NCBI GenBank assembly: GCA_018825335.1
Contig: JAHJEW010000051.1
Span: 1-59,578, forward strand
Reading direction: 5' to 3'
DNA: 59,578 nt
From: Patescibacteria group bacterium
GTDB taxonomy: Bacteria; Patescibacteriota; Gracilibacteria; UBA1369
Shown: positions 2,824 to 51,500 of the stretch, in pieces
Layout of the letters: every line of letters starts with the position of its first letter
Position numbering within the stretch: position 1 is the stretch's first letter
Program-made: the position numbers and the translations under genes
The notes under the pieces: model-generated
Seen by the model: only the letters and a program-made list of their open reading frames with translations
Database searches by the model: none
Told to the model about the DNA's origin: nothing

Positions 2824-4497
2824 ATGCATAAATCCTGCGGCCAGTGTAAGCAATCATTCGAAATTGCCAACGAAGACCTAAAGTTTTACGACAAAGTTTC
2901 CCCAATTTATAATGACAAAAAATATCTCCTCCCCCCGCCAACACTATGCCCGGACTGCAGACAAAGACGGCGACTGGTATGGCGCGGTGAAAGAAAATTA
3001 TATAGCCGAAAATGTGACCTTTGCGGCAAAAACATAATTTCAATCTTCGCAACAAACAGAGGGTATACAGTTTACTGCCCGCCCTGCTATTGGAGCGACA
3101 AATGGAATCCCGCGGATTTCGGAAGATCTTACGATCCTTCCAGGACATTTTTCGAGCAATACGATGATCTCCTAAAATCGGTTCCACTCCAATCTTCCTA
3201 TTTAATTGAAGCAGTTAATAGTGAATTCAACAATAACGCGTCCTATTTAAAGAACTGCTACCTTATGAGTTCTTCAAATTCAAATGAAGACTGCTATTAT
3301 GGCTATTTTGTGAACGATTCAAGGGACTGCATGGACTGCACTTCCGTGAATAAATCCGAAAAATGTTATGAAAGTATTGAATGCGTTTCCTGCTACGATT
3401 GCAGATACTGCAAAAATTGCGTCAACTGCACGGAAAGTTATTTCCTGACGAACTGTATTTCCTGCAATAATTGTTTTGGATCAATAAATTTGCGTCACAA
3501 AAAGTACTGTTTTTTTAATGAGCAACTCACTAAAAATGAATATGAAAAGAAAATCAGTACATTTCTTAGTGGAGACAGAACGAAAGTGGAAGAAATGCTC
3601 CAGAAAGTTCGTGAGCATAATCTAAAATATCCTTTTCCGTACATGATCGGTGAAAACAATGAAAACGTCAGCGGAAATTCCATTTACAGGTCAAAAAACA
3701 GCAACACCTGTTTCGACTGCGATGACATTGAAGATTGTAAATATTGCTATCAACTAATGAATGCAAAAGATTGCTACGATATTATGTCATGGGGACGAAC
3801 CGGAGAGTTATTTTATGAATGCGTTGCAACCGGCGCAAATGGCTACAATAACAGCTTTACAGCAATAAACGTCGCAGGAATAAATAACTTATATTCATAC
3901 ATGTGTATGCATTCCAAGAACCTTTTTGGATGCGTATCGGTCAAAAAATCCCAGTACATGATTCTAAATAAAAAATATTCACCCGCCGAATTTGAAACAC
4001 TTGCCGCAACCATTATAGAAAACATGATCCGGACAAAAGAATGGGGAGAATTTTTCCCGGAAGCACTTTCTCCCTTCACTTATAACGAGTCTCTGGCCGA
4101 CGATTTCTTTCCTTTAACAAAGGATCAGGCAGAAGCAATCGGTGCCAAATGGTACGACGAAACCAATAAAGCATCCGAACAAAATTCAAAAAAAATTATT
4201 CCGGTCGCAATTCAGACAGTTACGGAAGATATACTAAAAACTATCCTAACCTGCCAATCCTGCCAAAAAAACTACAAAATAATCCCGCAGGAACTGGATT
4301 TCTACAAAAAAAACACCGTCCCCCTCCCCATTAATTGCGTGGACTGCCGCCATAAAGCCCGCCTGGCCCTGCGCAACCCGCGCCACCTATTCAACCGCGC
4401 CTGCGCCAAATGCGCGGCGCAAATCCAGACCACCTACGCCCCCGACCGCCCCGAAACCGTCTACTGCGAACAGTGCTACCTAAAGGAAGTCTACTAA
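2824..4497 (+). CDS. Cys-rich double zinc-ribbon family paralog, copy 2 (full Cys complement in both terminal modules)
   Basis: 557-aa ORF with an ATG start. N-terminal module: CGQCKQSF..FY..LCPDCRQRRR..RKCDLCGK..VYCPPCYWSDKW. Two CxxC-repeat blocks, then EWGEFFP. C-terminal module: CQSCQKNYKIIPQELDFYKK..CVDCRHKAR..CAKCAAQIQT..VYCEQCYLKEVY*. Confidence 0.9.
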   Translation: MHKSCGQCKQSFEIANEDLKFYDKVSPIYNDKKYLLPPPTLCPDCRQRRRLVWRGERKLYSRKCDLCGKNIISIFATNRGYTVYCPPCYWSDKWNPADFGRSYDPSRTFFEQYDDLLKSVPLQSSYLIEAVNSEFNNNASYLKNCYLMSSSNSNEDCYYGYFVNDSRDCMDCTSVNKSEKCYESIECVSCYDCRYCKNCVNCTESYFLTNCISCNNCFGSINLRHKKYCFFNEQLTKNEYEKKISTFLSGDRTKVEEMLQKVREHNLKYPFPYMIGENNENVSGNSIYRSKNSNTCFDCDDIEDCKYCYQLMNAKDCYDIMSWGRTGELFYECVATGANGYNNSFTAINVAGINNLYSYMCMHSKNLFGCVSVKKSQYMILNKKYSPAEFETLAATIIENMIRTKEWGEFFPEALSPFTYNESLADDFFPLTKDQAEAIGAKWYDETNKASEQNSKKIIPVAIQTVTEDILKTILTCQSCQKNYKIIPQELDFYKKNTVPLPINCVDCRHKARLALRNPRHLFNRACAKCAAQIQTTYAPDRPETVYCEQCYLKEVY

Positions 4498-6492: not shown

Positions 6493-8103
6493 TTAAACCA
6501 GTGATTTTTCGTATTCAGATTCCGTCACAATATTTTTCTTTTCCGGATGCTCAAAAAAAACAGAGACCTTTTCATCACCCACCAAAATCTCTTTGGGAGT
6601 AAAACTTGTATCCATTATTTCCATGCGCTGTTTGTATCTAAGAACCGGACTGACCCTTGGTAACGCAATAAAGTGCTTTTTATAATAATCCAGTTCCTGG
6701 CTTAAATACTTAAACTTCTTCCCTGAAATAATGCAGCTTTGTACCGATCCGGACTGTTCGCCATTCGTAGCCCCAGCACCGACCTCACACTCCCTTCCAA
6801 AATAATCCGACTCCTTATCATCAAAAAGATCAAAAGCAATCGTGTCTTCATACGGAAACGGACTTAAAGACATTGGGAAAAACTTTCCATATTCACCTCT
6901 TTTACGCATTAAATCACGCAAAACAGCGGTCCGTTCAATATATTCCTCCTTGGAATATGGCTTGTTAAAAATATGATACTGCTTATTTTTCAGCCCGATG
7001 CACCCAAAACAATTACTACTGTTCAGACATAAATAACAATATTCCATGAATGAACTATGCCACACAAAAGCGCAATTCTTCACTTCATAAGAAGCAATGC
7101 CCGTTGCCACGCACTGAAAACAATTTTCCACTCTATCGTTGCACATAAAAGAACCAACCATGTCTTTCGCCATGGCGCACTGAAAATTATTATATGCATC
7201 TTTCATGTCAAAACTTTCGAAACACCGCAGAGTACTGGCCGAATTACGCAGATAATTGCCGCTGGCGTTTTCACAATTATCCATTATTGCGTACGACATG
7301 GGAGCGCGAGCCACAATCTTTTCCCGGAACTCTTTCTTCATCTCTAAAACTTTTGAATAATCGCGAAAATCAATGTCCAGCATAAATTTCCCATACTGCT
7401 CCTTGGTCAGTTGCTCATTATTTACGCAATATTGCTTATTCCGCAGGTTTGAGCACATAAAAGAGTTCTGAACATTCCGGCAATTATACGAAAAAGCCGA
7501 ATCCGAAACCTGCCTGCAATTAAAGGAAAAACGGACATTATAGCAATTGAATAAATAGACGCTGTCATAAATCAGCTCGGAGTCCATAATCCAGTAAACG
7601 TCAACGCAATCACGGGAATTATATATCCTGGTCGAGTAATAAACGTCCCGACAATTAAGCGCGTCAAAAACAAGATAGCAGTTCTTCAAGCCTTCGCAGT
7701 CATGGCAATATTCCGCATTTTCCTGAAGATTGGAAAGCAGGGACACCACCGGCGCCCTCTTTTGAAGTTCCTTGAATTGCTCGAAAAACGGCTTGTTAAA
7801 ATCAATTTCAAGGAAAGGTGAGGACCAGTCGTCGCTGTACCATTCATCATGACTAAAAACTGGACAAAGAGCATTTTCGCTATAAACGGAAACGATTTTC
7901 TTTCCACTCTTGCTTGAAGTCCGTTCGTAAAGACGTTTGTTGGGATACCATGCCATAACCTGTCTCATACTTTCATTGGGGTCGATTTTGGCAAGATCAA
8001 CGCCAAATTTATCAGATAAATAAGCGAGTAAATTTTGCATACACCAAGTATACCCAATAATGGGCACACCCGTAGTAGAGCGGGCACCCAAAACACTGGA
8101 CAA
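6493..8103 (-). CDS. Cys-rich family paralog, copy 3 (divergent; both terminal zinc-ribbon modules have lost their Cys ligands)
   Basis: It retains EWYSDDW, IDFNKPFFEQFKELQKRAPV, the central CxxC-type repeats, GLKNKQYHIFNKPYSKEEY and GEYGKFFP..SPFPYE, but the ends lack CxxC pairs. An alternative start is the Met at 8040 (MQNLLAYL). Confidence 0.8.
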   Translation of the reverse strand: MSSVLGARSTTGVPIIGYTWCMQNLLAYLSDKFGVDLAKIDPNESMRQVMAWYPNKRLYERTSSKSGKKIVSVYSENALCPVFSHDEWYSDDWSSPFLEIDFNKPFFEQFKELQKRAPVVSLLSNLQENAEYCHDCEGLKNCYLVFDALNCRDVYYSTRIYNSRDCVDVYWIMDSELIYDSVYLFNCYNVRFSFNCRQVSDSAFSYNCRNVQNSFMCSNLRNKQYCVNNEQLTKEQYGKFMLDIDFRDYSKVLEMKKEFREKIVARAPMSYAIMDNCENASGNYLRNSASTLRCFESFDMKDAYNNFQCAMAKDMVGSFMCNDRVENCFQCVATGIASYEVKNCAFVWHSSFMEYCYLCLNSSNCFGCIGLKNKQYHIFNKPYSKEEYIERTAVLRDLMRKRGEYGKFFPMSLSPFPYEDTIAFDLFDDKESDYFGRECEVGAGATNGEQSGSVQSCIISGKKFKYLSQELDYYKKHFIALPRVSPVLRYKQRMEIMDTSFTPKEILVGDEKVSVFFEHPEKKNIVTESEYEKSLV

Positions 8104-8154: not shown

Positions 8155-10197
8155 ATGCCAAAAAATACACCGAAACAAGAACAATCCGGAATCTTAAAAG
8201 ACGCCAAAATGCCGCTGCAGCTATGCCGTGGAACCGTCCATAAAATCAACGGCAAAAAAGTCGAAAACTGCTGGGGAAAGCCAATACCGGAAGGCAACTC
8301 CGGCGCGCTGTATATTGGAAAAACGATTATCGAACCAATTTCCACCAGAATAAGAGCGGTTCTAACGGGCAAAGAACCAGGCCCGCAAAACATTTATTCG
8401 GAGGAATTCATTCAAAGCGCGCTGGAAAACCTGGGGCCGCATTTAAGAATTGGAAATAAAATTTGCATTGTGCAGGCGCGTTGTCTTAGCGAAATTTTCA
8501 ACGGCCCCACGGACACGGAAAACGCCCTTACAATAGAGCGGCAACGTGATTTTATCCGGAAAATTGCGAAAAAAATCGGCATAAAAGAGGAGCAACTGGA
8601 ATTTATAGATCTGGAAGATCAGGTGCGCCACTCCCAGCTTTTTTTGGCTGTAAGGATGTCAATAGATCCGGCAACGGGAAAATTTGATCCTGAAATGGCT
8701 TTTGGCGCAGACAGGGACGAGGATGAAAAAAATGAACCGTTCAGATGGCCGGAATCCGTTTCTCTGGACATCGCCAAATGCCTTTATGAAGCATACAAAG
8801 CCCATCCGGAGTTTGCGGACCTGTTCAGGGAAACAATTCCTAAAGGTCTGGCGGGCGACCGGGAAGATCAAAGCGATCAGCAAAACTACTATTCCCTTGT
8901 GGAAATCGCATGCAGAATTGCGGATCTAAAACACGGAACAAGCTTTCAATGCGGCGCCGGCAGGCAGGCGCGCTACGATAAAATCATTGAGGATCTTCGG
9001 AGAGGGGAAAAAGGACAATTCAAAAAATACCGCGAATTGAAGCCAATATTTGATCTATTAAAAGGAGCCACATTTCAAACATTGCACTTCTTCACGGATG
9101 CCGATTACAGAGGAAAAAAACTGCGCAGAACCAGGGCGCGAACCAAAATAGCCGCCATGGCCGCCATTGGTTTAACCACCCTTGGCACGGCTGCATTCCA
9201 CTCATGCACGTCAGAAATGAGGCAGAGGGAAGAGCAGGAACAACTAATGGAGGAAAAAATCCGGGAGGGAACCAGGCATATAAGATTCAGATTCGAAGGT
9301 TTTTTCATGGATGAACAGGAAAATGTAAAAATGACTTTATCGATTGCAAATTCGGTTCTGGGTAGATTGAAGGAACGCTATCAGATGGGCATATTCATGA
9401 ATAGCGAGCTTAAACCTCTGGTGATAGAGTTTCTTCTGGCAAGCACCGGTCTGTTGCAGCAGGCAAATCAGGACGCGGGAGTGGTAAACGAACTGGCCGA
9501 TCTTTTTGTAAAAAAACATTCACTGTTTCTGGCCCAAAAAGGATTGAATACGACGCAACCTTTCGCCAATTTTACGCCGTACATGGACAAAATCAAAGAA
9601 GCTGCGGTCGGCATGGACGATTTTCAGCTCAATACAATTCTTGCCTCACCCAACCCGGGTAATTTCGACGACGTTGAATCAGTAAACGATCTACATCTAA
9701 AAAAAATCGGAAAATTCACACCATCGGTTCAGTACGGATGGACGCAAACTTTATATATATACGAAAAAAACGGGGAAACCCACATCCTGGGCCGCGACAT
9801 GAGTAAAGAAGATCCAAAAACGGTGGACAGGGTTTTTACGGCTAAAGAAGGGCGCGAGCTGGCACAACAATTCCTTAGCGGATTGCGCAAATACGACACT
9901 CTGCAGATAGCCGACTTAAGGTCGACTCTTTCCAACATGTGCTATAACAAATACAACCCCGGACCAAAAGAAAAAAGTGAGCCGGCCGAATCAAATCCGT
10001 ACAGCCCGTACACGTTTCATTACAAAGATTCACTCGGCGAGTTTGATTATTACCTGCGGCAATCTTACTTCATGGACAAAACAATCAATCACTCCATAGA
10101 CATTATACTTGCGCGCCGCCCCGGAGAGTCGCAATATACATACGAAACAGGCATGGAAGTCGCCCGAAAATACTGTAATATCATGAAATACAGATGA
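8155..10197 (+). CDS. hypothetical ~680-aa protein with one central TM segment
   Basis: Long uninterrupted ORF. The track start at 8137 is TTG and the first ATG is at 8155. A hydrophobic segment IAAMAAIGLTTLGTAAF lies mid-protein and a Glu/Gln-rich segment follows it. The stop overlaps the ATG of the TrmB-like gene (ATGA at 10194-10197). No recognisable catalytic motif. Confidence 0.7.
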   Translation: MPKNTPKQEQSGILKDAKMPLQLCRGTVHKINGKKVENCWGKPIPEGNSGALYIGKTIIEPISTRIRAVLTGKEPGPQNIYSEEFIQSALENLGPHLRIGNKICIVQARCLSEIFNGPTDTENALTIERQRDFIRKIAKKIGIKEEQLEFIDLEDQVRHSQLFLAVRMSIDPATGKFDPEMAFGADRDEDEKNEPFRWPESVSLDIAKCLYEAYKAHPEFADLFRETIPKGLAGDREDQSDQQNYYSLVEIACRIADLKHGTSFQCGAGRQARYDKIIEDLRRGEKGQFKKYRELKPIFDLLKGATFQTLHFFTDADYRGKKLRRTRARTKIAAMAAIGLTTLGTAAFHSCTSEMRQREEQEQLMEEKIREGTRHIRFRFEGFFMDEQENVKMTLSIANSVLGRLKERYQMGIFMNSELKPLVIEFLLASTGLLQQANQDAGVVNELADLFVKKHSLFLAQKGLNTTQPFANFTPYMDKIKEAAVGMDDFQLNTILASPNPGNFDDVESVNDLHLKKIGKFTPSVQYGWTQTLYIYEKNGETHILGRDMSKEDPKTVDRVFTAKEGRELAQQFLSGLRKYDTLQIADLRSTLSNMCYNKYNPGPKEKSEPAESNPYSPYTFHYKDSLGEFDYYLRQSYFMDKTINHSIDIILARRPGESQYTYETGMEVARKYCNIMKYR

Positions 10198-11107: not shown

Positions 11108-11140
11108 CCGACAAGCCTTGTTGACCGACAACGCTTGTCG
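11108..11140. repeat. boundary hairpin motif, copies 2a and 2b (CCGACAAGCCTTGTTGAC then CGACAACGCTTGTCG)
   Basis: Two adjacent copies lie 10 nt upstream of the ATG of paralog copy 4. Copy 2b is a perfect 6-bp stem with a CGC loop. Confidence 0.7.
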
Positions 11141-11149
11141 CCAAATACC

Positions 11150-12790
11150 ATGAACAAAACCTGCGAAACCTGCGGAGAAAATTTTATCCTCTCCGATCTG
11201 GAAATACGGCAATACAAAAAAAACGACGTTACGCCGCTGCCAATATGCTTTCCCTGCCAGCATAAACACAGGCTTTCATTCCGCAACGAAAGAACCCTAT
11301 ACACAAGAAAATGCGATGGCACGGGAGAAAGTATTATCACCATCTATGCGCCGGACAGCCCATACAAGGTATACAAAAACGAATACTGGTACAGCGACAA
11401 ATGGGATCCAATGGAGTACGGAATGGATTTTGACTTCAACCGACCTTTCTTCGATCAGTTGCGCGAGCTAAATCGCAAAGTGCCAAGAGTGGCTTTAATC
11501 AACTTAAAACACGAAAACAGCGACTACTGCAACATGGCAGTCGGCAACAAAAACTGCTACCTGGTCTTTGGCGGCGACTACGACGAAGACTGTATGTACA
11601 TGACATTAAGCTTTTTCTGCAGGGACTGTCTGGACGCCGACTACAGCAACAAAAACGAACTAACCTACATGGCGGACAACACCATGGACTGCTACGACTG
11701 CCAATATATATGGGATTCAAGAAACTGCACAAACTGCTATTTCAGCACCGATTTAAGCGGGTGCACCGAATGTATTTTCTGTAATAATTTACAGAATAAA
11801 TCCTATTGCATAGAAAATAAACAGTACACAAAAGAAGAATATTTAAGGAAGAAAGCAGAAATTCTGGATGGCAGCTACGCGACGCAAAGGAAAAACTGGG
11901 AAAAATTCAGGCATCTCCGCGAAAGCAGAATTGTAAAATACGCCCACATTATGGCCTCCGAAAACTGCACAGGCGATTATATTAAAAACTCAAAAAACTG
12001 CACCAGCTGTTTTGACTGCAGCAACAGCGAAGACGTGTCCGAATCAGTATTTCTGGAAGGAGCAAAAGACGGCTTTAACATAAGCTTTTTAGGACATAAA
12101 TCCGAACTGACCTACAACTGTATTAGCGTAATAACCTCCAGTAACATTTTCGGCAGCTACTTTATTAGCGACAGTAGCGACATTTTTTACTCCGAAATGT
12201 GCCTAAACAGCCAGGATCTTTTCGGATGCCAAGGCCTGCGCCGCAAAAAATACTGCATCCTAAACAAGCAGTACACCAAAGAAGAGTACCAAAAAATGGT
12301 ACCGAAAATAATTGAGCACATGAAAAAAACAGGAGAATGGGGACGATTCCTGCCAAAAGATTTTTCGGCATTTGCCTATAACGAGGGAACCGGCATGCGT
12401 TATTTCCCGCTGACAAAAGAGCAGGCGCTGCAGCAGGGTTTCCGCTGGAGAGACGAAGATGCCAAATCTTTCACGCCACAAACCTATGTTACTCCGGACA
12501 ACATTAAAGATGTACCGGACAGCATAACATCGGAAGTTTTAGCCTGCACCGATTGTAAAAAGAACTTCAAAATACTCCAGGCGGAGCTCCAGTTTTACAG
12601 GAAACTGAACATACCGGCGCCGCGCACATGCGCCGACTGCAGGCAAAAAGCAAGAAATACCTTAAGAAATCCATACGTCCTCCACCTACGCACCTGCAAA
12701 AAGTGCGCGGCGCCTATCCAGACCGCGTACGCCCCGGGCCGCCCCGAAACCGTATACTGCGAAAAATGCTACCTGAAAGAAGTCTACTAA
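11150..12790 (+). CDS. Cys-rich double zinc-ribbon family paralog, copy 4
   Basis: The track start at 11135 is TTG. The ATG at 11150 gives MNKTCETCGENF, matching the other copies (M.K(T/S)C..C). Full-length homology, ending in RPETVYCEKCYLKEVY*. Confidence 0.9.
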   Translation: MNKTCETCGENFILSDLEIRQYKKNDVTPLPICFPCQHKHRLSFRNERTLYTRKCDGTGESIITIYAPDSPYKVYKNEYWYSDKWDPMEYGMDFDFNRPFFDQLRELNRKVPRVALINLKHENSDYCNMAVGNKNCYLVFGGDYDEDCMYMTLSFFCRDCLDADYSNKNELTYMADNTMDCYDCQYIWDSRNCTNCYFSTDLSGCTECIFCNNLQNKSYCIENKQYTKEEYLRKKAEILDGSYATQRKNWEKFRHLRESRIVKYAHIMASENCTGDYIKNSKNCTSCFDCSNSEDVSESVFLEGAKDGFNISFLGHKSELTYNCISVITSSNIFGSYFISDSSDIFYSEMCLNSQDLFGCQGLRRKKYCILNKQYTKEEYQKMVPKIIEHMKKTGEWGRFLPKDFSAFAYNEGTGMRYFPLTKEQALQQGFRWRDEDAKSFTPQTYVTPDNIKDVPDSITSEVLACTDCKKNFKILQAELQFYRKLNIPAPRTCADCRQKARNTLRNPYVLHLRTCKKCAAPIQTAYAPGRPETVYCEKCYLKEVY

Positions 12791-12797
12791 AAAAACC

Positions 12798-14423
12798 ATG
12801 CAAAAAACCTGCCGCCAGTGCGCAAAACAATTCAAAATCACTCGGGAAGATCTGGAACATCTGGACAAAGTCAGCCCAATAATCGGCGGCCAAAAGCAGC
12901 AAATCCTACCGCCTACCCTCTGCCAGGACTGCCGTAGGCAAAGGCGTCTGGCCTTCAGAAACGAACAATACATCTACCTCCGCAAGTGCGACCTTTGCAA
13001 AACGGATATCATTACTATCTATTCACCGGACAAACCGCTGCCCGTATACTGCAGCAAATGCTGGTGGGGCGACGACTGGGACCCACTTGAATGCGGCCGG
13101 AACTTTGATTTTTCCAGACCTTTTTTCGATCAATTCAAAGAACTGTCAGCAAAAGTCCCCGTGCCGCCCAACATGGTTTTTTCGTCCGAAAACTGCGAAT
13201 ACTGCGGCTTCTGCGTCAACTCCAGAAACAGCTATTTATCCAGCCGCGTCGGTGACAGTGAAGACATCTATTACTCATACCTGGCCGTCGGATCGCAAAA
13301 CTGCACAGACTGCTACAATATCATAAACTGCCAGCTCTGCTACGAATGCATCGATTGCTGGAACTGCTACGCTACCGTTTTCAGTCGTCTTTGCAAAACC
13401 ACCAGTGACTCCGCTTTTTGTTACGATTGCATAGGATGCAAAAACTGTTTCGGATGCTTTGGCCTGCGAAACGCCGAGTACTATTTCTTCAATCAAAAAT
13501 GCAGCAAAGAGGAATATGAAAAGAAGGTGCGCGCCCTGCAGCTTGAAAAGCCGGAAAACCTTGAGCGCGCAAAAGAAATGTTCGAAAAATTCATACTGGA
13601 AAAACCACATCGTGCCACCATAATAAACAACTGCCAAAACGTTTCCGGCGATTTTATTGTCGATTCAAAGGATGCTCACGACTGCTACGACATCGAAAAA
13701 ATCGAATCCGCAAAAAACGTCTGGTCCAGCGAATATTCAAAAGACATTTACGATTGCGATTTCATATACGGCGGCGAAAAATGCTACGAAAACATGTCCA
13801 ACGCCAATAGTAACGGCATTTTATTTTCCGCGGTCGCCATTACCGGCGTAAACGACTGTCTTTACTCCGCATTGGTTTGCAACGGCACCCAAAACTGCTT
13901 TGGCTGCGCATCGCTCAAAAAACAAAAACACTGCATCCTCAACAAACAATACTCAAAGGAAGAGTATGAAAATCTTGTCCCCAAAATTATTGAGCACATG
14001 AAAAAAACAGGCGAATGGGGTGAATTTTTCCCGGCTACGCTTTCCAATTTCGCCTATAACGAAACCGTAGCCCAAAGCTATTTCCCGCTAACAAAAGAGC
14101 AGGCACTCACAAACGGCTTTATGTGGAAAGATAGGGAAACGCAGCAAAAACACGCCGCCGCGGAAAACCTAATAACCTGCAAAACCTGTAATAAACAGTT
14201 CAAACTCGTAGCCGCGGAAATAGAATTCTACAAAAAAATGCACCTGCCGCCCCCCGCAAAATGCCACGACTGCCGCCACGCCGCGCGAGGTGCTCTACGA
14301 AGACCCCGCCGCCTATACCCTCGCACCTGCGACAAATGCCAGGATCCCATACAAACCACATTTGCCCCAACCCGTCCCGAAACCGTATACTGCGAATCGT
14401 GCTACCTAAAAGAAGTTTATTAA
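12798..14423 (+). CDS. Cys-rich double zinc-ribbon family paralog, copy 5 (full Cys complement)
   Basis: 541 aa with about 43 Cys by manual count. Starts 7 nt after copy 4 ends. All family motifs are present. Confidence 0.9.
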   Translation: MQKTCRQCAKQFKITREDLEHLDKVSPIIGGQKQQILPPTLCQDCRRQRRLAFRNEQYIYLRKCDLCKTDIITIYSPDKPLPVYCSKCWWGDDWDPLECGRNFDFSRPFFDQFKELSAKVPVPPNMVFSSENCEYCGFCVNSRNSYLSSRVGDSEDIYYSYLAVGSQNCTDCYNIINCQLCYECIDCWNCYATVFSRLCKTTSDSAFCYDCIGCKNCFGCFGLRNAEYYFFNQKCSKEEYEKKVRALQLEKPENLERAKEMFEKFILEKPHRATIINNCQNVSGDFIVDSKDAHDCYDIEKIESAKNVWSSEYSKDIYDCDFIYGGEKCYENMSNANSNGILFSAVAITGVNDCLYSALVCNGTQNCFGCASLKKQKHCILNKQYSKEEYENLVPKIIEHMKKTGEWGEFFPATLSNFAYNETVAQSYFPLTKEQALTNGFMWKDRETQQKHAAAENLITCKTCNKQFKLVAAEIEFYKKMHLPPPAKCHDCRHAARGALRRPRRLYPRTCDKCQDPIQTTFAPTRPETVYCESCYLKEVY

Positions 14424-14460: not shown

Positions 14461-16137
14461 ATGCAAAAATCCTGCCAAAAATGTAAAACACCGTTTGAAG
14501 TCTCCACATTCGAAAAAGACTTTCTACTTAAAATAAGCCCAAAAATCGGAGAAAAACAGTACATGATCCCGGAGCCGCAAATCTGCCCGGACTGCCGCCT
14601 TGCCGAAAGGACCGTCCAAAGAAACGAGCAAAATTTCTATCACAACAAGTCCGCAATATCAGGAAAACCACTGCTAGCCCTATACGCACCAAATACGCCC
14701 TGGGGCAAAGAGTACAAAGTCTATACCAAGGAAGAATGGAATAGCGACAACTGGGACGGCCTTGATTACGGCAAGAATTTCGATTTCAACAGGCCATTTT
14801 TTGAGCAGTATAAGGAACTGAACGACCAAATCCCAAAAGTGAACATGGTAACTGTAAGCAACGAAAATTCCCCATACACCACAGGCACCGCATATTGCAA
14901 AAATTGCCACCTAATAAACTGCTCGGAAAATTGCGAAGACTGCTATTACGGAAAACTTATTCAGGACTCAAGAGATGTAATAGATTCGGACTTCGTCTAC
15001 GACTCGGAGCTTTTATACCAATGCTTCAACGTGACAAAATGCTACGACTGCAAATACTTATCATACAGCCAAAACTGCTCCGGCTGTTCTTTCTCGGACA
15101 ATTTACGAGGATGCAAAAACTGCTTTCTATGCACAAACCTTGTAAACAAAGAATACCATTTCATGAATAAGCCGCTAAAAAAGGAAGAGTACGAAGCAAA
15201 AGTAAAAGAATTCATGAGCTCAACCGCCAATATCCAAAAGGCAAAAGAGCAATTGAAAAAACTTAGAGAACAGCGCACATACAAATACGCAAACGTCGTA
15301 AATTGCGAAAACTCAACCGGTGATTTCCTTACAAACTGTAAAAACTGCACCGACTGTTACGACGTAAACGACAGCGAAGATTGCAAATACGTCACCGTAG
15401 GAGTAAACGTAAAAGATCTGGTGGACTGCTCAAATATGTATTTAAAGCCGGAATTAAACTATCAAGTCCTTGGTACAATAGAAACATACAATGTTATTTT
15501 CGGAGTGTTCGTCTTTCACAGTCAGAATGTAATGTATAGTCAGTTTTGCTTTAACTCGCAAAATCTTTTTGGATGCAGCGGGCTAAGGCAAAAGAAATAT
15601 TGCATTTTAAACAAGCGGTATTCGCAGGAGGAGTACAATCAACTGGTGCCAAAAATAATTGAGCACATGCAGAAAACGGGTGAATGGGGAAGATTTTTCC
15701 CAATAGAAAGTTCACCCTTCGGATACAACGAAACCGTTGCAAATCAATATTTGCCACTCACAAAAGAAGAAGCATTAAAGCGGGGATACAAATGGAAAGA
15801 GCCCGACATGAAAGAATATAAAGCCCAAAACTGCAATGTCCCGGAAGAAATCGGCCAGGTGAAAGATGACATAATACAGGAAACTCTGGCCTGCAATAAC
15901 TGCTCAAAGAACTACAAAATCATTCCACAGGAACTGAAAAGATTAAGAACAATAGGCTTACCCATACCAACAAAGTGCCCCGACTGCAGACAAATGGAGA
16001 GAATGTCCATGCGCAATCCACGCCGCCTATATGCTCGTACCTGCGACCAATGCGCCGCCCCTATCCAAACCTCATTTGCCCCCTCCCGCCCAGAAACCGT
16101 ATACTGCGAAAAGTGCTATTTGAAAGAAGTTTATTAA
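14461..16137 (+). CDS. Cys-rich double zinc-ribbon family paralog, copy 6
   Basis: 558 aa with family motifs throughout. The second Cys pair set of the N-terminal module is lost (NKSAISGK, KVYTKEEW). Confidence 0.9.
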   Translation: MQKSCQKCKTPFEVSTFEKDFLLKISPKIGEKQYMIPEPQICPDCRLAERTVQRNEQNFYHNKSAISGKPLLALYAPNTPWGKEYKVYTKEEWNSDNWDGLDYGKNFDFNRPFFEQYKELNDQIPKVNMVTVSNENSPYTTGTAYCKNCHLINCSENCEDCYYGKLIQDSRDVIDSDFVYDSELLYQCFNVTKCYDCKYLSYSQNCSGCSFSDNLRGCKNCFLCTNLVNKEYHFMNKPLKKEEYEAKVKEFMSSTANIQKAKEQLKKLREQRTYKYANVVNCENSTGDFLTNCKNCTDCYDVNDSEDCKYVTVGVNVKDLVDCSNMYLKPELNYQVLGTIETYNVIFGVFVFHSQNVMYSQFCFNSQNLFGCSGLRQKKYCILNKRYSQEEYNQLVPKIIEHMQKTGEWGRFFPIESSPFGYNETVANQYLPLTKEEALKRGYKWKEPDMKEYKAQNCNVPEEIGQVKDDIIQETLACNNCSKNYKIIPQELKRLRTIGLPIPTKCPDCRQMERMSMRNPRRLYARTCDQCAAPIQTSFAPSRPETVYCEKCYLKEVY

Positions 16138-16150
16138 TCGTGCGTAAGCT

Positions 16151-17809
16151 ATGTCGCATCCAAAACAAATCTGCAAGCAATGCAAAACGCAGTTTGAGGT
16201 TATTCCAAAAGACCTGGAGTTTTACAAGAAAATGAATGTGCCGGCCCCGGCGCATTGTCCAGATTGCAGAGTGCAAATGCGCTTGGCATGGCGTAACGAA
16301 AGAAGGCTTTTTACGCGAAAATGCGACCTGTCCGGCAAACAAACAATCTCTTTCTATCCACAAAATTCTCAATATAAAGTATATGCCCAGGACGTCTGGT
16401 GGTCAGACAAATGGGACGGCAAAGACTACGGCCGCGATTTCGATTTCAACAGACCATTTTTCGACCAGTTCGCAGAGCTTCTTGCAGACGTCCCCCACAT
16501 GGCAATGGTAATTTCACACGGAGAAAACAGCGATTATTGCCCTTACGCCGTTTATTACAAAAACAGCTACATGTGCGTTTCAGGAGTAAAAGGAGAAGAT
16601 ATATATTATTCATTCTGGACCAACGACAGCCGCAGCTGCACCGATTGTTATGCCTGCTTTGAATCCGAACTTTGCTACGAATGCGTTCAATGCATCAACT
16701 TATACAACTCATTTTTCTGTAAAGACTGCGACAATTCAAACGACCTGGCTTTTTGCGTAAATTGCGACGGATGCAAGAACTGCATAGGCTGCTACGGGCT
16801 TAGGCATAAGGAATATTACGTGTTCAATAAAAAGGTTACGCCGCAGGAGTATGAAAAAATCAACAAAGAAATACGCGAAAGTCCGGAGGCGCTTCTGGAA
16901 ATGAAGGCCAAATTTCAGCAACATCTATTAAACTACCCCCAGCGCGCACTCCAGATGGTCAATACAGAAAACTGCACAGGGGACTACCTGCTAAATTGCA
17001 GAAACAGCCATGACTGCTACCTTTCCGAAGGCCTGGAAGACTGCGCCTACATGTGGAATATTCCGGACGGATGCAAAGATTGTATGGATTTAAACTTCTC
17101 TCCAAAAAGTGAACTTACCTATAACAGCATAAGCACGGTCAATGGATCTAATTGCCTTGTCGCCCCTTTCTGCTGGGATACAAAGGATTCATTTTACTCC
17201 TTTCAGTGTTTCTACTCAGGGAATCTGCTTGGTTGTGTTGGATTAAAAAAAGAAAAATATTGCATCTTAAACAAGCAATATTCAAAGGAGGAATACAACA
17301 GGCTGGTGCCAAGAATCATTGAACATATGAAGAAAACAAATGAATGGGGCGAATTTTTCCCGATGGAAATAAGCCCATTTGGTTACAATGAAACAATCGC
17401 GCAGGACTATTTCCCACTTTTAAAACATGAAGTTAAGAAGCGCGGATGGCGCTGGTCGGATGAACAGCCATCGGTACCGAAAGTGGAAAAAACAATAATA
17501 GCGGCTCAAATACCGGCAAACATAAAAGATGTCCCGGACGACATTGTAAATTGGGCCATATTGTGTGAAGAAAGCGGAAAACCGTTCAGAATAATTCCGC
17601 AGGAACTGACATTTTATAGAAAAATGGGATTACCCATTCCGCGCCGCCACCCGAACCTGCGCCACGCGCAAAGGCAGGCGTCGCTAAACCCACGCCATCT
17701 GTTCAACCGAAATTGCGACAAATGCGGCGCGCCCATGCAAACGACCTTCGCCCCCTCCCGCCCAGAAACCGTATACTGCGAAAAGTGTTACCTGAAAGAA
17801 GTATATTAA
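16151..17809 (+). CDS. Cys-rich double zinc-ribbon family paralog, copy 7
   Basis: 552 aa. The N-terminal second site is degenerate (RKCDLSGK, KVYAQDVWW). The C-terminal first site is degenerate (LCEESGK, RRHPNLRH). The tail RPETVYCEKCYLKEVY* is retained. Confidence 0.9.
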   Translation: MSHPKQICKQCKTQFEVIPKDLEFYKKMNVPAPAHCPDCRVQMRLAWRNERRLFTRKCDLSGKQTISFYPQNSQYKVYAQDVWWSDKWDGKDYGRDFDFNRPFFDQFAELLADVPHMAMVISHGENSDYCPYAVYYKNSYMCVSGVKGEDIYYSFWTNDSRSCTDCYACFESELCYECVQCINLYNSFFCKDCDNSNDLAFCVNCDGCKNCIGCYGLRHKEYYVFNKKVTPQEYEKINKEIRESPEALLEMKAKFQQHLLNYPQRALQMVNTENCTGDYLLNCRNSHDCYLSEGLEDCAYMWNIPDGCKDCMDLNFSPKSELTYNSISTVNGSNCLVAPFCWDTKDSFYSFQCFYSGNLLGCVGLKKEKYCILNKQYSKEEYNRLVPRIIEHMKKTNEWGEFFPMEISPFGYNETIAQDYFPLLKHEVKKRGWRWSDEQPSVPKVEKTIIAAQIPANIKDVPDDIVNWAILCEESGKPFRIIPQELTFYRKMGLPIPRRHPNLRHAQRQASLNPRHLFNRNCDKCGAPMQTTFAPSRPETVYCEKCYLKEVY

Positions 17810-17933
17810 AAAAACGCCCCGGAAAGCCTTCCGAAGAGTTTTAACAGGGCGCAGATTACGGATTGTAATCCTTACCTCCACCACCGAAGATGTAATAAAT
17901 ACACCTCAGGACATAATTATACGGGTTGACCGG

Positions 17934-18002
17934 TGGTGGAGGCAAGGGGAGTTGAATCCCTGGTAACAGGATGATAAGCCCGTCTTCGCGCCCGCTGCCC
18001 CC
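17934..18002 (-). ncRNA. tRNA-like / tmRNA-TLD-like element (acceptor stem with G3:U70, T-arm, encoded ACCA; no normal D-arm)
   Basis: Minus-strand RNA: GGGGGCA GCGGGCGCGAAG ACGGG CUUAUCAU CCUGU UACC AGGGA UUCAACU CCCCU UGCCUCC ACCA. The 7-bp acceptor stem pairs fully, with a G:U at 3:70 and discriminator A73. The T-loop UUCAACU is identical to the E. coli tmRNA T-loop as I recall it, and the 5' GAAGACGGG resembles the tmRNA UUCGACGGG motif. Weaknesses: A53:C61 mismatch, a 12-nt D-region and an 8-nt loop. Confidence 0.45.
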
Positions 18003-18076
18003 ACCCCGTATCAGCAATAGCAAATATACAAAAGAAAGATTATGCTTTATTAAGCTGTTGATAAAATTTTTCTCAC

Positions 18077-19741
18077 ATGGAAAAAACCTGTAATCAATGC
18101 ACCGCAAAGTTCAAGGTCGACGAAAACGATCTCGCCTTCTACGATAATATCTCGCCCACCTTCGGCAACAAAAAAATCCAAATCCCTCCGCCAACCCTCT
18201 GCCCCAAATGCCGCCTGCAGCGCCGCCATGCTCGCCGCAACGAATACAATTTATACCCGCGTAGCTGTGACCTTTGCAGCAAATCCATAGTTACAATCTA
18301 CCACCCGGCGGCGCCCTTCACCGTCTATTGCAATAATTGCTGGTGGAGCGACAAATGGGAGGGCGCGGACTACGGCATCGACTACGACGAATCCATACCT
18401 TTCTTCGACCAATTCCAAAACCTTCAAAAAAAAGTCCCGCGCATGGCAATCTGGAACCACGCCTGCGAAAACAGTGACTACACAAATCACTCATCCAATC
18501 TAAAAAACTGCTACCTAGCAACCTGCGCGATCTACAGCGAAAACATCTACCACTCGCGCTGGGTAATAAGATGCAAAGACCTCTGCGACTGCTACCAAAT
18601 GATTAGCTCGGAACTTTGTTACGAAACGTCATACACTCATGGATACAAAATCATTAACGGCTATTTTGCGGACAGCCGCGACTGCACCTTTGTTTACGAC
18701 TGCAAAAGCTGCTCAAATTGCTTTATGTGCTGGAATCTTCGTCACAAAGAGTACTGTATAGAAAACAAACAATATTCAAAGGAAGAGTACGAAAAAATTA
18801 TGGCCGGAATAAATATTGGTTCATACAGCCAATATCAAAAATACAAAAAGCAATATCTGGAAATTGTCAGAACCAACGTTATCAAGCAAGGTGCAAGACT
18901 AACCATGTGCGAAAACAGCAGCGGCGAACTCCTATACAAATGTAAAAATGTCCAAGATTCATACGGCTGCGTAGAATCCCGCGATTGCCGTCATTCCCAC
19001 GAAAGCGAAGACCTAAAAGACTGCTACGACACCTGCGAAACTGCGTCCAATTGCGAGCTGCAATATGAAACCAGCGGATGCGATCACTCCAATAATGTCA
19101 TATGCTCAAGTCGTTCCTCCAATGTAAGCGGCGCTTTCTACACCGAAGGATGCAGCAATGGCGGAAACCTCTTTGGCTGTATTGGACTTAACCGGAAAAA
19201 CCACTGCATCCTGAACAAACAATACACAAAAGAAGGGTACCAAAAACTGGCGGCAAAAATCGCCCAAAACATGCAAAAAAACAATGAATGGGGCGAATTT
19301 TTCCCAATTTCAACCTCCCCCTTTGCCTACAACGAAACCACTGCCCATGAAGACTTCCAAATAACAAAAAAACAGGCAAAACAAAACGGCTGGCAATGGC
19401 TGGAAGTCGACCACAAACAATACCTCCTTCAAACCTGCACCCTCCCCGACGACATCAAAGATACGCCGGATTCCATCACCAAAGAAATCCTCGCTTGCCC
19501 ATGCGGCAAAAACTACAAAATCGTCCTACCCGAACTGGAATTTTACAGAAAAATGAACCTGCCAATCCCCCGAAAATGCCCGCAGTGCAGACGAAAAGAC
19601 CGCAAAAAATTGCGTCCGTCCCTTTTCACGCAAACCACAATAAAATGCCAAAAATGCGCCCGGCCAACCATAACCGGCCTAAATCCCGACTACCCGGGCA
19701 TAACCTACTGCGAAAAATGCTATCTTAAAGCGGTGTATTAA
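18077..19741 (+). CDS. Cys-rich double zinc-ribbon family paralog, copy 8 (more divergent core)
   Basis: 554 aa. The N-terminal module is intact (CNQCTAKF..LCPKCRLQRR..RSCDLCSK..VYCNNCWWSDKW). The tail is ITYCEKCYLKAVY*. Confidence 0.9.
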   Translation: MEKTCNQCTAKFKVDENDLAFYDNISPTFGNKKIQIPPPTLCPKCRLQRRHARRNEYNLYPRSCDLCSKSIVTIYHPAAPFTVYCNNCWWSDKWEGADYGIDYDESIPFFDQFQNLQKKVPRMAIWNHACENSDYTNHSSNLKNCYLATCAIYSENIYHSRWVIRCKDLCDCYQMISSELCYETSYTHGYKIINGYFADSRDCTFVYDCKSCSNCFMCWNLRHKEYCIENKQYSKEEYEKIMAGINIGSYSQYQKYKKQYLEIVRTNVIKQGARLTMCENSSGELLYKCKNVQDSYGCVESRDCRHSHESEDLKDCYDTCETASNCELQYETSGCDHSNNVICSSRSSNVSGAFYTEGCSNGGNLFGCIGLNRKNHCILNKQYTKEGYQKLAAKIAQNMQKNNEWGEFFPISTSPFAYNETTAHEDFQITKKQAKQNGWQWLEVDHKQYLLQTCTLPDDIKDTPDSITKEILACPCGKNYKIVLPELEFYRKMNLPIPRKCPQCRRKDRKKLRPSLFTQTTIKCQKCARPTITGLNPDYPGITYCEKCYLKAVY

Positions 19742-19812: not shown

Positions 19813-22050
19813 ATGGAATTCTTGCATGTCATTGTTCCGCAGGGAACGCCGGATAATCCGAAAAAAGAGAACCTGTTTCTCCACTTTTTGAATAACCTCC
19901 ATAACACCGCCAAGGGTAAAATTTTTTCCCTGGAAATGTTCGGCTACAAGCAGTACACATACTTTTTTGTAGGATGCAACGCCGAAGACGTAAAACTGAT
20001 TGAAGGGCTTATATACAGCATTTACCCCGAATGCGAAATTAAACCGCAAAAAGATTACACCACCTATTTAAACGCGCAGACCCACGTAATAAAAGGCACA
20101 TCGCTTCACATGGAAAGAAGCGACATCTACCCGATCCAGACTTTCGAAACATTCGACGTGGACTCACTTTCCGGCATATTCTCGGTGATTTCAAAAATGA
20201 ACCCCAATGACAGGGCCTGGATTCAGATCCTTACCTCACCCCGTACCGACAACTGGATCTACCATTTCAAGCGAACATGGAGAATGAAAATCAATAAAAT
20301 AAAAAGGATTTTTCGTTTGAAGGATTACGTGCGTCTCAAAGGCAAAAAAACATTTCACAAGGAAGAAGACACCTCTTTCGTGACCAAGACGGAAAGCAAC
20401 CCTTTTGAAATCCAGATAAAAATCGGGGCCGTTTCCGGTAATGCCGCCGAAGCCGAAAGGAACGTTCAGGCGCTTGCCAAAGCCTTTTATCAGTTCAATA
20501 AAACTGATGCGAACGGGTTTGTCATGGAAAGAATCAGAGGAGGTGAAAACTTTCTGAACGAATATCGGAGACGAAAAATAAACAGGCCCGCCATAGTCGG
20601 CGCCAACGAACTGGCCACCTTGTATCATTATCCAAATCCGGACCATGTACCCCATGTAGTGCATGTACTGGCCAAAAGGCACGAGCCGCCAAAGAACCTG
20701 CCAACCCAGGGCGAAGGAATTTCCATGTTTGGGATTACAAACTACCACAACACTTTTCAGCAGTTTGGGATCCAGAGAGAAGATCGCAGGCGACACCTTT
20801 ACGTTGTTGGAAAGAGCGGTACCGGTAAGTCGAAACTGCTTGAGTTGCTCATACAAAATGACATCAACGAAGGGCACGGGATAGCGGTCCTTGACCCTCA
20901 CGGTGACCTTGTGGACAACATTATCCGCATGATCCCGGAGCATCGAATTAAAGACGTAATCCTGTTCGACCCCGGCGATACCGAATTCCCGATCGCATTC
21001 AATCCGCTCGAAAAAGTGGACGAAAAATTCAAGATGCAAATAACAATCGGATTCATAGATATCTTTAAAAAACTTTTTGGCGACAACTGGTCAGACAGGC
21101 TGGAACACGTACTTAGGTACACCACTTTGGCGCTTCTGGACTCGCCAAACACATCGGTGCTTTCCATCCTGAAAATGCTTACCGACAAGAATTATCGCCA
21201 AACAATTGTAGCCCGCATTCAGGATTCGGTGGTTAAAAACTTCTGGGTAAACGAATTTGCCGGATGGAGCGAAAAATTCGATGCGGAAGCAATTACGCCG
21301 CTGTTAAACAAAGTCGGCCAACTGGTTTCCACCAACATGATCCGCAATATGATAGGACAGCCGAAGAACAGTTTTGATATTCGCGATGTCATGGATAACC
21401 AGAAAATCCTGCTCATGAAAGTTTCAAAAGGACTTCTCGGAGAGGAAAACTCGCAGCTTATAGGATCGATGATTATTACCAAGATTTACCAGGCCGCCAT
21501 GGCCAGGGCGGATATTAAGGAAGAACAGCGAAAAGATTTCTATTTCTACGTAGACGAATTCCAAAACTTCGCGACCGACACATTTTCGGAAATCCTTTCA
21601 GAAGCCAGAAAATACCATCTTTGCATGACCATTGCGCATCAGTATGTTGGACAGCTTGGCGACGTAATCAAGAAAACGGTTTTCGGTAATGTGGGTTCGA
21701 TAATTAATTTCAGGGTGGGAGCGGAAGATGCGGTTGTGCTGGCCGAGGAATACACGCCGGTATTTAGCGTGCGGGACATTATCAACCTTGGCGTTCGTGA
21801 ATTTTATTTAAAGATGAGTATTGGTGGAGAGCTTAGTGAAGCCTTTTCCGGCCGTACAATGGACATGACTTTACCCGACTACGATCACAGCGCGGAGATT
21901 TTCGAACAGTCGCGGGAAAAATACTGCACGCCAAAAGACAAGGTGGAAGAAATGCTGAAAAAATGGGACGAAGGAAGCGCAGAGCCGCCGCCGAAAGATA
22001 TTAATCAGGTAATAAAACAGGCCGAGGAATTCGAAACTCCGCTAATATAG
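19813..22050 (+). CDS. VirD4/TraD/TrwB-like (type IV coupling protein-like) or HerA-like P-loop ATPase
   Basis: 745 aa. Walker A is YVVGKSGTGKSKLL, followed by AVLDPHGDL. Walker B-like motif is FYFYVDEFQNF, then ARKYHLCMTIAHQ. I did not identify other T4SS components in the window. Confidence 0.65.
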   Translation: MEFLHVIVPQGTPDNPKKENLFLHFLNNLHNTAKGKIFSLEMFGYKQYTYFFVGCNAEDVKLIEGLIYSIYPECEIKPQKDYTTYLNAQTHVIKGTSLHMERSDIYPIQTFETFDVDSLSGIFSVISKMNPNDRAWIQILTSPRTDNWIYHFKRTWRMKINKIKRIFRLKDYVRLKGKKTFHKEEDTSFVTKTESNPFEIQIKIGAVSGNAAEAERNVQALAKAFYQFNKTDANGFVMERIRGGENFLNEYRRRKINRPAIVGANELATLYHYPNPDHVPHVVHVLAKRHEPPKNLPTQGEGISMFGITNYHNTFQQFGIQREDRRRHLYVVGKSGTGKSKLLELLIQNDINEGHGIAVLDPHGDLVDNIIRMIPEHRIKDVILFDPGDTEFPIAFNPLEKVDEKFKMQITIGFIDIFKKLFGDNWSDRLEHVLRYTTLALLDSPNTSVLSILKMLTDKNYRQTIVARIQDSVVKNFWVNEFAGWSEKFDAEAITPLLNKVGQLVSTNMIRNMIGQPKNSFDIRDVMDNQKILLMKVSKGLLGEENSQLIGSMIITKIYQAAMARADIKEEQRKDFYFYVDEFQNFATDTFSEILSEARKYHLCMTIAHQYVGQLGDVIKKTVFGNVGSIINFRVGAEDAVVLAEEYTPVFSVRDIINLGVREFYLKMSIGGELSEAFSGRTMDMTLPDYDHSAEIFEQSREKYCTPKDKVEEMLKKWDEGSAEPPPKDINQVIKQAEEFETPLI

Positions 22051-48559: not shown

Positions 48560-48635
48560 TGGTGGGCCAAGCAGGAATCGAACCTGCGACCATCTGCTTA
48601 AAAGGCAGCTGCTCTACCGACTGAGCTATTGGCCC
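48560..48635 (-). tRNA. tRNA-Lys (anticodon UUU), CCA encoded
   Basis: The reverse complement gives acceptor GGGCCAA/TTGGCCC, discriminator A plus CCA, T-arm GGTTCGATTCC, and anticodon loop CUUUUAA flanked by a CUGC/GCAG stem. Confidence 0.9.
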
Positions 48636-48689
48636 TAAATATCTTCATGCAAAAAAGCCCCACTATTCTATTGATAGAGCATTTGTTTA

Positions 48690-49280: not shown

Positions 49281-49333
49281 TTGCCACTCATTATACTGGC
49301 AATCATTGCAAGTGCAAAGTGCTTAAAAAAAGA

Positions 49334-50479: not shown

Positions 50480-50634
50480 CAGAGTGAGCGTTAGCGAGCT
50501 CTCGCGTGCGTAAGCACGCTAATAATAGTGCAGCGAAGTTTGCGAAGCAAACACAATATCTTAACAATATCATATTTGAAAACCCCCCCGCGGTAGTATA
50601 AAGTTACCCGCGCCTGGTCAAATACAATAAACGC

Positions 50635-51416: not shown

Positions 51417-51500
51417 AGGTTTCCTGTTCCTGAAAGATTTATGGATGACCACACTTTTATACAGTACAATCATTAAGAATTTATAAAGCAGACATAAAAA

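Follow-up and report, generated by a model that had tools for sequence, protein, structure and literature searches.

An alanine-identity tRNA-like small-RNA gene from a Patescibacteria contig and its family of predicted antisense-coupled relatives

The stretch of DNA considered here (the window) is 59,578 nucleotides (nt) long and represents contig JAHJEW010000051.1 of a Patescibacteria group bacterium (assembly GCA_018825335.1). Judged by its structure and its relatives, a 69-nt element on the minus strand of this window is a real small-RNA gene belonging to a widespread family of tRNA-like RNAs with alanine identity. The family displays a two-RNA architecture: about half of its copies are accompanied by a cognate antisense unit, which co-varies with the tRNA-like RNA in a pair-specific manner. 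The family, which occurs in uncultivated bacteria, is apparently undescribed. Functionally, we favor, at somewhat short of an even chance, a chargeable mimic of transfer-messenger RNA (tmRNA) or tRNA-Ala, which would engage translation or ribosome rescue and would be neutralised by its cognate antisense RNA.

Anatomy and detection of the window element

The element was initially described as resembling the tRNA-like domain (TLD) of tmRNA without its coding body, lying in the only long spacer of a paralog array. Every part of the anatomy claimed in this original prediction was found in the sequence: the acceptor stem, a 12-nt analogue of the D-arm, a 5-bp helix with an 8-nt loop, a 4-nt linker and the T-arm, together with the alanine identity set (G3.U70 and A73), an encoded CCA and the A53.C61 mismatch. 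Read on the minus strand from 18002 to 17934, the order is GGGGGCA GCGGGCGCGAAG ACGGG CUUAUCAU CCUGU UACC AGGGA UUCAACU CCCCU UGCCUCC A CCA, in which the 4-nt UACC links hairpin and T-arm (Table 1). A genomic CCA was also encoded by the tRNA-Lys and tRNA-Glu genes of the window. The spacer (17810-18076) is 267 nt long and indeed the only long one, the remaining array spacers measuring 7-71 nt. Identity of the T-loop UUCAACU with that of E. coli ssrA held as well, GGACGCGGGTTCAACTCCCGCCAGCTCCACCA being the 3' end of ssrA in 5422 of 5426 E. coli genomes.

With a length of 66-75 nt, G3:U70, the GG of the D-analogue and a hairpin bearing a C-Y-U-R-Y-C-A-N loop, the window copy displays the features of the family described below. 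Pairing in the lower part of its hairpin is poorer than in its relatives. It departs from a canonical cloverleaf by the absence of a D-stem, by its 8-nt loop and by A53.C61 instead of G53-C61. The tmRNA motifs GG(n)nUCGAC and GAC before the T-stem were not encountered in the window copy, which has GCGGGCGCGAAG and UACC, and an mRNA-like domain (resume codon, tag frame, stop) was likewise not found in the element, only the 8-nt loop separating the P2 strands. In other family members a -10-like TGTTATAAT lies about 9 nt upstream of G1.

Detection of the element depended on the settings. By default, ARAGORN made no call at the element, its only calls in the window being tRNA-Lys and tRNA-Glu; these were also the only window genes matched by Rfam at gathering thresholds, and the tmRNA mode of ARAGORN returned nothing at the element. 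Of the detectors proposed as a check, ARAGORN and the Rfam models were thus negative at default and gathering thresholds and positive when relaxed. At a threshold of 80% (-ps80), ARAGORN called the element 'tRNA-??? (tatc)', that is, with an 8-nt anticodon loop, and in E-value mode the top Rfam family was RF00023 (tmRNA), with 23.4 bits against a cut-off of 47 and E = 2.2e-7 in a scan of 801 nt. The corresponding alignment extended over model positions 1-374 and covered both ends, 328 positions being deleted. The proposed likeness to a tmRNA TLD lacking the coding body was borne out further, tmRNA being the top Rfam family both for the window copy and, in the loci scanned, for 27 homologues. 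With R2, the covariance model of the family, the element reached 76.7 bits, the window sequence having been part of the training set of that model; E-values of the covariance models built in this analysis are rough. Folded as a single sequence, the element reached z = -2.5 and its minimum-energy fold was not a cloverleaf. This signal is weak. The case beyond chance rests on homologues with compensatory changes.

Homologue family and covariation

Eighty loci around relatives of the paralog protein were taken from species-representative genomes and searched by means of a structural descriptor and of a covariance model built from one sequence. Elements of this kind were present in five other Peregrinibacteria/Patescibacteria genomes, found without RNA-based ascertainment (Table 1, where loci bear L numbers). 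Each of these Peregrinibacteria copies has a paralog gene at a distance of 20-160 nt, encoded on the other strand. Metagenome contigs were scanned with a pattern that fixed GGGG, CUCC and the loop motif; this gave at least 120 loci, which with four viral loci make 124. At least 102 of these displayed a perfect 7-bp acceptor stem, and they included at least 76 distinct short elements (minis), which measure 66-72 nt when counted to the discriminator. In all, over 80 non-redundant homologues of 66-75 nt were gathered, the GC content of their host loci ranging from 29 to 70%.

Conservation of the proposed pairing in relatives was confirmed on 50 members aligned to the family model, in which all three helices covaried. 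Standard pairs occupied 96.3% of the pair cells, against 74.3% in shuffles and 59-70% with partners slid; changes on both sides occurred in 12 of 17 pairs, and the covariation score was 0.60 against 0.16 in shuffles. Covariation was heavy in all five hairpin pairs and in acceptor pairs 5-7, the latter with 22-23 double changes each. All 50 members displayed G3:U70. The loop-closing pair of the T-stem was G-C in 49 of them, the window copy being the lone exception.

Three copies were found by the model alone (L152:288-357, L193:3905-3977 and L116:9840-9913). All three displayed G3.U70, their loops being AUUAUCAA, AGUUACCAC and CUUGCCAG, respectively, and the acceptor stems of the L193 and L116 copies (L193b and L116b) fall outside the scan pattern. 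Unbiased support for G3:U70 comes from the seven Peregrinibacteria copies, L193b and L116b, and that for the loop motif from the same copies plus L152b; the C-Y-U-R-Y-C-A motif was also seen in most copies not ascertained by the loop pattern. Family members scored 17-46.5 bits with RF00023, just below its cut-off, and Rfam tmRNA outscored Rfam tRNA in every mini tested.

Several contigs carry more than one copy, with three on L039 and two each on L152, L193 and L116. On contig L181, which includes infC and rplT, a full-length tmRNA (135 bits, tag GNFIAKVKNAFALPSLVLA) lies 2.9 kb away from a mini and its partner. There, beside a standard tmRNA, the module is accessory.

Pairing of leader and trailer was considered as a family signature and abandoned, since family-wide it was not clearly above tRNA controls; the exception was an acceptor extension of 4-6 bp in 17 of 57 CCA-less copies. 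Pairing like that of the window, with other sequences, was seen in L067, L044, L045 and L039. BLAST of one family member against phage genomes returned T-arm matches only.

Two groups of relatives stand apart. A GC-rich sub-family (GGGGGUAGCAGGUUCGCC...CCCGAC-T-arm; L104, L112 and L164, also L099, L123 and L191) displayed no antisense partner; at three loci it lies, with conserved flanks, between a conserved upstream hairpin and an open reading frame (ORF) resembling transposases of insertion sequences, and it may be part of a mobile element. The second group consists of full-size cloverleaf tRNA genes with G3:U70 (L170, L185, L197, L202, L203, which is viral, L124, L192, L118, L154, L149 and L103), to which ARAGORN assigned the non-alanine anticodons Asp GUC, Thr UGU, Ile UAU, Val UAC and Gly ACC. 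Close to several of them the anticodon arm is repeated over 10-22 nt. The group could represent mistranslating tRNAs or else full-length relatives of the minis. Because the family grades into full cloverleaf forms, a 'tmRNA domain' and a 'tRNA-Ala derivative' are not separable at the sequence level.

Cognate antisense partner units

A partner was scored where at least 10 nt exactly complementary to the hairpin region occurred on the same strand within 200 nt. Of 83 non-redundant elements among the matches listed, 38 had such a hairpin-complementary segment. The partner unit, in which a promoter, a 5' seed, a hairpin and a terminator succeed one another, lies 20-130 nt from the element, with the complement usually 22-90 nt downstream, or about 90-126 nt upstream in a D-hairpin sub-family, and its seed is usually directed against the 5' strand of the hairpin and the 8-nt loop. 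A sigma-70-type promoter (at least 9/12) with its start at the seed was present in 31 of the 38 cases, compared with 1.2% of random positions, and often took the perfect form TTGACA-N16/17-TATAAT or TATACT. A terminator was found 15-57 nt after the seed start in 36 of the 38, compared with 11% of random positions. At L044, L045, L128 and others the segment is a direct repeat, preceded by a -10 box on the other strand and followed by a bidirectional terminator, so that the transcript would again be antisense.

Pairing appeared specific to each couple. The median length of the complement was 13 nt in cognate pairs and 5 nt in 1406 non-cognate combinations; on cofolding, cognate pairs gained -14 to -31 kcal/mol, whereas shuffled partners gained about -2. 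Duplexfold energies with large internal loops were not discriminating, and exact or contiguous-helix tests and cofolds were used. In closely related pairs, compensation extended to three strands: the L085 hairpin GGCUGAG...CUCAAGCC is matched by the seed AGUUGACAAGCUCAG, and the L195 hairpin GGCAGAG...CUCAUGCC by the seed AGUUGACAAGCUCUG. The same three-way covariation was found among the three copies of L039.

The partner RNAs displayed no consistent reading frame and matched no Rfam family. The possibility that they represent a split mRNA-like domain was rejected, a resume codon, tag and stop having been sought in 20 partners in which no consistent frame emerged; stop codons occurred in the partner hairpin loops of only some of the 20. 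In cofolds of L085, L131 and L181 the partner was seen to pair past the seed into the D-analogue and part of the 5' acceptor strand, over about 29 nt including G.U in L085. It is possible that the partner gene originated when the 5' half of the tRNA-like gene was copied in inverted orientation. At L195, a DUF3800-II RNA (RF02961, 70 bits) was observed at 1707-1778, about 0.8 kb downstream of the module, to which it is probably unrelated.

The acceptor-directed partner of the window copy

The window, too, has a neighboring unit, bounded by a predicted promoter and terminator, that is complementary to part of the tRNA-like RNA. It had escaped the original prediction and consists of a downstream 17-nt complement of the acceptor 3' strand together with a second promoter and terminator, which ties the element to the two-RNA module. 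The inverted repeat joins CCUUGCCUCCACCACCG (17947->17931), comprising the acceptor 3' strand, A73, CCA and three trailer bases, with CGGUGGUGGAGGUAAGG (17886->17870); it is 94% complementary, with one G.U as RNA. The -35 TTGCCT of the downstream unit lies inside the acceptor 3' strand of the element. The partner promoter of L067, the closest genomic relative, has the same TTGCCT-18-TATAAT layout and likewise overlaps the 3' end of the tRNA-like gene, and the candidate window partner occupies the same position as the partner units of L067, L126 and others. Cofolding of the window pair gained -16.0 kcal/mol, where shuffled partners gave -2.6 +/- 2.1. In a precursor formed by read-through, the anti-acceptor helix prevailed over the acceptor stem (z -4.7). 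The T run of the window terminator overlaps the stop codon of the plus-strand paralog.

The only other anti-acceptor case among the 83 elements was L146, where UGGUGGAGCUCA, in a TTGACC-17-TATAAT unit, is the complement of the 3' strand plus CCA. The L146 gene continues with UAA, not CCA. Its partner would therefore pair with a non-templated CCA, which argues for the mature, CCA-added tRNA-like 3' end as target. A permuted or two-piece tmRNA, with the downstream GGAGGUAAGG as second 5' acceptor strand, was considered and rejected; about 70 nt are left before the terminator, there is no tag frame, and the layout is not common to relatives. Taken together, the acceptor-directed variant and the change G53->A suggest that the window copy may be attenuated.

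Interpretation and alternatives

In the preferred reading, the RNA would mature like a tRNA, its CCA being received or encoded, and would be charged by alanyl-tRNA synthetase (AlaRS) via G3:U70 and A73. Since it has no tag reading frame, its engagement of SmpB, EF-Tu and stalled ribosomes is proposed to be unproductive, and ribosome rescue or translation would be inhibited or modulated. The cognate antisense RNA would neutralise the tRNA-like RNA, in most copies by opening the hairpin beside the D-analogue, in the window and L146 by sequestering the acceptor 3' strand and CCA. The pair would then form an RNA-only lock-and-key module of toxin-antitoxin type. Orthogonal pairs within one contig, scattered contexts and multi-copy occurrence fit a selfish or toxin-antitoxin-like module. 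The more far-reaching proposal of a phylogenetically broad RNA-only lock-and-key class, in which the mimic poisons or tunes rescue or translation, antidotes co-evolve into orthogonal pairs and the window antidote acts at the CCA, appears somewhat unlikely.

Several points weigh against this proposed antisense-controlled mimic. We infer every one of its functional steps, namely transcript, charging, SmpB binding and toxicity. The window copy carries A53.C61 and is devoid of the tmRNA D-loop signature UCGAC, and a complement directed to its hairpin or loop was absent from the whole window. Anti-acceptor segments were found in two of 83 elements against 0.4 expected by chance, so that this class rests on few cases, and about half of the family has no detectable partner. 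For G3:U70 and the loop motif, both fixed by the scan pattern, the majority of metagenomic copies carry an ascertainment bias. Finally, the cloverleaf relatives to which ARAGORN assigns sense anticodons fit a decoding tRNA as well as a tmRNA mimic.

The window copy might be a decaying relic which suffered G53->A, lost its loop-directed partner and persists only through its location in the spacer. Its broken 53:61 pair, the sole one in the alignment, the missing hairpin complement and the poorer pairing of its lower hairpin speak for decay, which is nevertheless considered unlikely: acceptor stem, hairpin, T-stem and CCA are otherwise intact, a 10/12 promoter, the 17-nt complement to the acceptor and a terminator lie downstream, and L146 shares the same alternative design.

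A regulatory RNA duo independent of charging, in which the tRNA shape serves stability or processing of a sponge or target, or of a switch processed by RNase III or RNase P, seems distinctly unlikely. It would account for a strong and specific pairing, for the likeness of the partner to a classical small RNA with 5' seed and terminator, and for the want of a conserved protein gene beside the module. Seeds, however, diverge even between copies on one contig (L039, L152), which argues against shared external mRNA targets; conservation of G3:U70, A73, the T-loop and the GG of the D-analogue exceeds the needs of a stability scaffold, and the L146 and window partners address the CCA end.

Quite improbable is a non-canonical, alanine-charged decoding tRNA with reduced D-arm and enlarged anticodon loop, acting in frameshifting (quadruplet) or mistranslation, whose anticodon arm would be masked by the antisense RNA. 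The relaxed ARAGORN call, the loop C-U-U-A-U-C-A-U, which follows anticodon-loop grammar (C32 U33 ... A37) with one extra base, the full-size G3:U70 relatives called Asp(GUC), Thr, Ile, Val and Gly, and the 49 bits reached by a genuine tRNA-Ala with the family model can all be cited for it. Yet the 'anticodon' varies freely (UGU, UAC, UAU, UGC) and co-varies with partner seed and stem, which suggests that it is the partner, not a codon, that recognises it. Many members, moreover, have no D-arm and a bulged hairpin of 8-9 bp abutting the T-arm, a TLD-like geometry, and the minis are closer to tmRNA than to tRNA in Rfam.

A role of the element as sole tmRNA of the organism, extremely reduced and donating alanine but no tag, is highly improbable: tmRNAs lacking a coding sequence (CDS) are known from organelles and possibly a few bacteria (PMC11915505), and neither standard tmRNA nor smpB was found in the window, but module and standard tmRNA coexist on contig L181, tandem and duplicate copies occur as listed above, and a dedicated antisense RNA and a diversifying hairpin are unexpected of a housekeeping ssrA. 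Two explanations put forward in the original prediction found no support either. A tRNA-mimicking attachment site and a degenerate ssrA copy are at odds with the promoters and terminators that the family possesses, with helices that covary, with multiple copies on one contig and with the full-length tmRNA alongside a mini on L181.

TLD-only tmRNA-like genes have so far been treated as isolated curiosities of one phage, a few organelles and perhaps two bacterial groups. The mimics now constitute a large family across diverse uncultivated bacteria, of which the scanned minis are missed by standard tRNA and tmRNA finders. If true, the proposed antisense-controlled mimicry would represent a new RNA-only way to regulate or sabotage ribosome rescue and a new RNA toxin-antitoxin logic. 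Whatever the function, the family provides a compact, naturally orthogonal RNA-RNA recognition system and a new target for annotation pipelines, and a role in SmpB/AlaRS mimicry is testable with a 70-nt RNA and a 60-100-nt partner.

Genomic surroundings

The element lies within a series of six Cys-rich paralogs of about 550 aa, 39-43% identical (2824-4497, 11135-12790, 12798-14423, 14461-16137, 16151-17809 and 18077-19741). Their only domain match is a C-terminal treble-clef zinc finger, and more than 560 relatives occur across Patescibacteria. A functional tie between element and array was not retained: it holds in five Peregrinibacteria genomes, whereas a paralog-like gene was near only one of the 124 metagenomic and viral loci among the matches listed. 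The association therefore corresponds to local synteny or to tandem duplication of a paralog-plus-RNA unit, is local to Peregrinibacteria and is not family-wide. No protein neighbor was conserved beside the module at the loci among the matches listed. The same locus was found in GCA_018814385.1, and the sequence was identical in three assemblies; these probably represent one population, which makes the identity uninformative.

Further along, a VirD4/TraG-like coupling ATPase follows the paralog array (19813-22050). A protein with an ORF6N domain, typical of phage antirepressor/KilA-like proteins, adjoins tRNA-Glu near DnaJ and tRNA-Lys (50862-51641, 48560-50710); this region may be the edge of an integrated element.

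Table 1. Positions of the window element, its candidate partner, flanking genes and related loci
Feature	Position	Strand	Basis or remark
Alanine-identity tRNA-like / tmRNA-TLD-like RNA gene, 69 nt, CCA encoded	17934..18002	-	Sequence, Rfam, R2, homologues, covariation
Acceptor stem, 5' strand GGGGGCA	17996..18002	-	Pairs with 17938-17944, 7 bp including G3.U70
D-arm analogue GCGGGCGCGAAG, 12 nt, conserved GG	17984..17995	-	GG invariant in 4-way alignment; family consensus GCgGGUgcg
P2 hairpin / anticodon-arm analogue ACGGG/CCUGU, 8-nt loop CUUAUCAU (17971-17978)	17966..17983	-	5/5 pairs covary
T-arm AGGGA UUCAACU CCCCU with A53.C61	17945..17961	-	53:61 is G-C in 49/50 aligned members
Acceptor 3' strand UGCCUCC, discriminator A (17937), CCA (17934-17936)	17934..17944	-	Sequence
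Leader/trailer inverted repeat, 5' arm AUACGGGGUG	18002..18011, partner 17919-17928	-	10 nt, 90% complementary (repeat search)
Tentative -10 box TATATT, preceded by TG, of the tRNA-like RNA	18023..18028	-	Read from sequence only
Promoter-like site of downstream unit	17916..17945	-	-35 TTGCCT (17940-17945), 18-nt spacer, -10 TATAAT (17916-17921); 10/12
Candidate partner RNA, about 100 nt: 5' hairpin, anti-acceptor segment, hairpin, terminator	17808..17909	-	z = -4.5; transcription inferred
Anti-acceptor segment CGGUGGUGGAGGUAAGG	17870..17886	-	Complement of 17931-17947; such a repeat in 0/400 spacer shuffles
Intrinsic-terminator-like hairpin (17817-17836) with T7 run (17808-17814)	17808..17836	-	Terminator scan
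Flanking Cys-rich paralog, 552 aa	16151..17809	+	ORF list; Pfam zf_Tbcl_2 at C-terminus
Flanking Cys-rich paralog, 554 aa	18077..19741	+	ORF list; same protein on GCA_018814385.1
Family copy	L067:5852-5920		
Family copy	L044:3340-3410		
Family copy	L045:6810-6881		
Three family copies	L039:4663-4736, 6526-6600, 8391-8465		One per paralog spacer
DS6A-type genes	L214:4017-4078; L222, L223, L231, L273, L320, L219, L258		
Further DS6A-type genes	L288, L317, L263, L270, L319, L233		

Comparison with known systems

TLD-only or CDS-less tmRNA-like genes are known from mycobacteriophage DS6A, from plastids (forms of about 65 nt) and from mitochondria (PMC4131195, PMC11915505). They share with the window family an acceptor with G3:U70 and discriminator A, a short GG-containing D-analogue and a P2 hairpin followed by the T-arm, and neither group has a resume codon, tag or pseudoknots. 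The DS6A gene (L207:28478-28560) scored 38 bits with the family model. It differs by its tmRNA UCGAC signature and by lacking the C-Y-U-R-Y-C-A loop and an antisense partner; DS6A-type phage genes generally display GGnnAUCGAC...GAC and short P2 loops, in contrast to the window family, which is for the most part non-viral, frequently multi-copy and linked to a small RNA of its own. Viral contigs (IMG/VR), scanned without constraint on the loop, yielded at least 14 further DS6A-type genes of 62-67 nt without coding body (Table 1), and almost none of the loop-plus-partner type among the matches listed. Phages thus seem to carry DS6A-type genes far more often than one would gather from the only case published.

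Standard tmRNA is the top Rfam family, the acceptor and T-arm align end to end, and the T-loop is that of E. coli ssrA; in contrast, 328 of the 374 model positions are absent from the window element, which stays below the cut-off and has neither tag ORF nor pseudoknots. With tRNA-Ala the element shares a GGGG...CUCCACCA acceptor with G3:U70 and A73, a T-arm and a GG in the D region, and the tRNA-Ala(UGC) of Peregrinibacteria at L046:9969-10045 is the gene that reached 49 bits with the family model. Unlike tRNA-Ala, the window element has no D-stem, an 8-nt instead of a 7-nt loop, no UGC anticodon and no call by ARAGORN at default or by Rfam tRNA at its cut-off.

Antisense-controlled toxin-antitoxin systems include hok/sok and par of pAD1 (type I) as well as the type VIII RNA-toxin systems SdsR/RyeA and CreTA. 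Like these, the modules described here consist of two adjacent small units with matched complementarity, a recognition loop borne by a hairpin and pair-specific seeds, and the convergent units of L044 and L045 share a bidirectional terminator. They differ in that the putative toxin is a tRNA/tmRNA mimic and not an mRNA, its toxicity being hypothetical. In the papers searched, no account was found of a dedicated antisense RNA coupled to a tRNA-like or TLD-like RNA, nor of a toxin-antitoxin module in which a tRNA-like RNA is under such control. TLD-only tmRNA mimics were known already; what is new is the two-RNA architecture.

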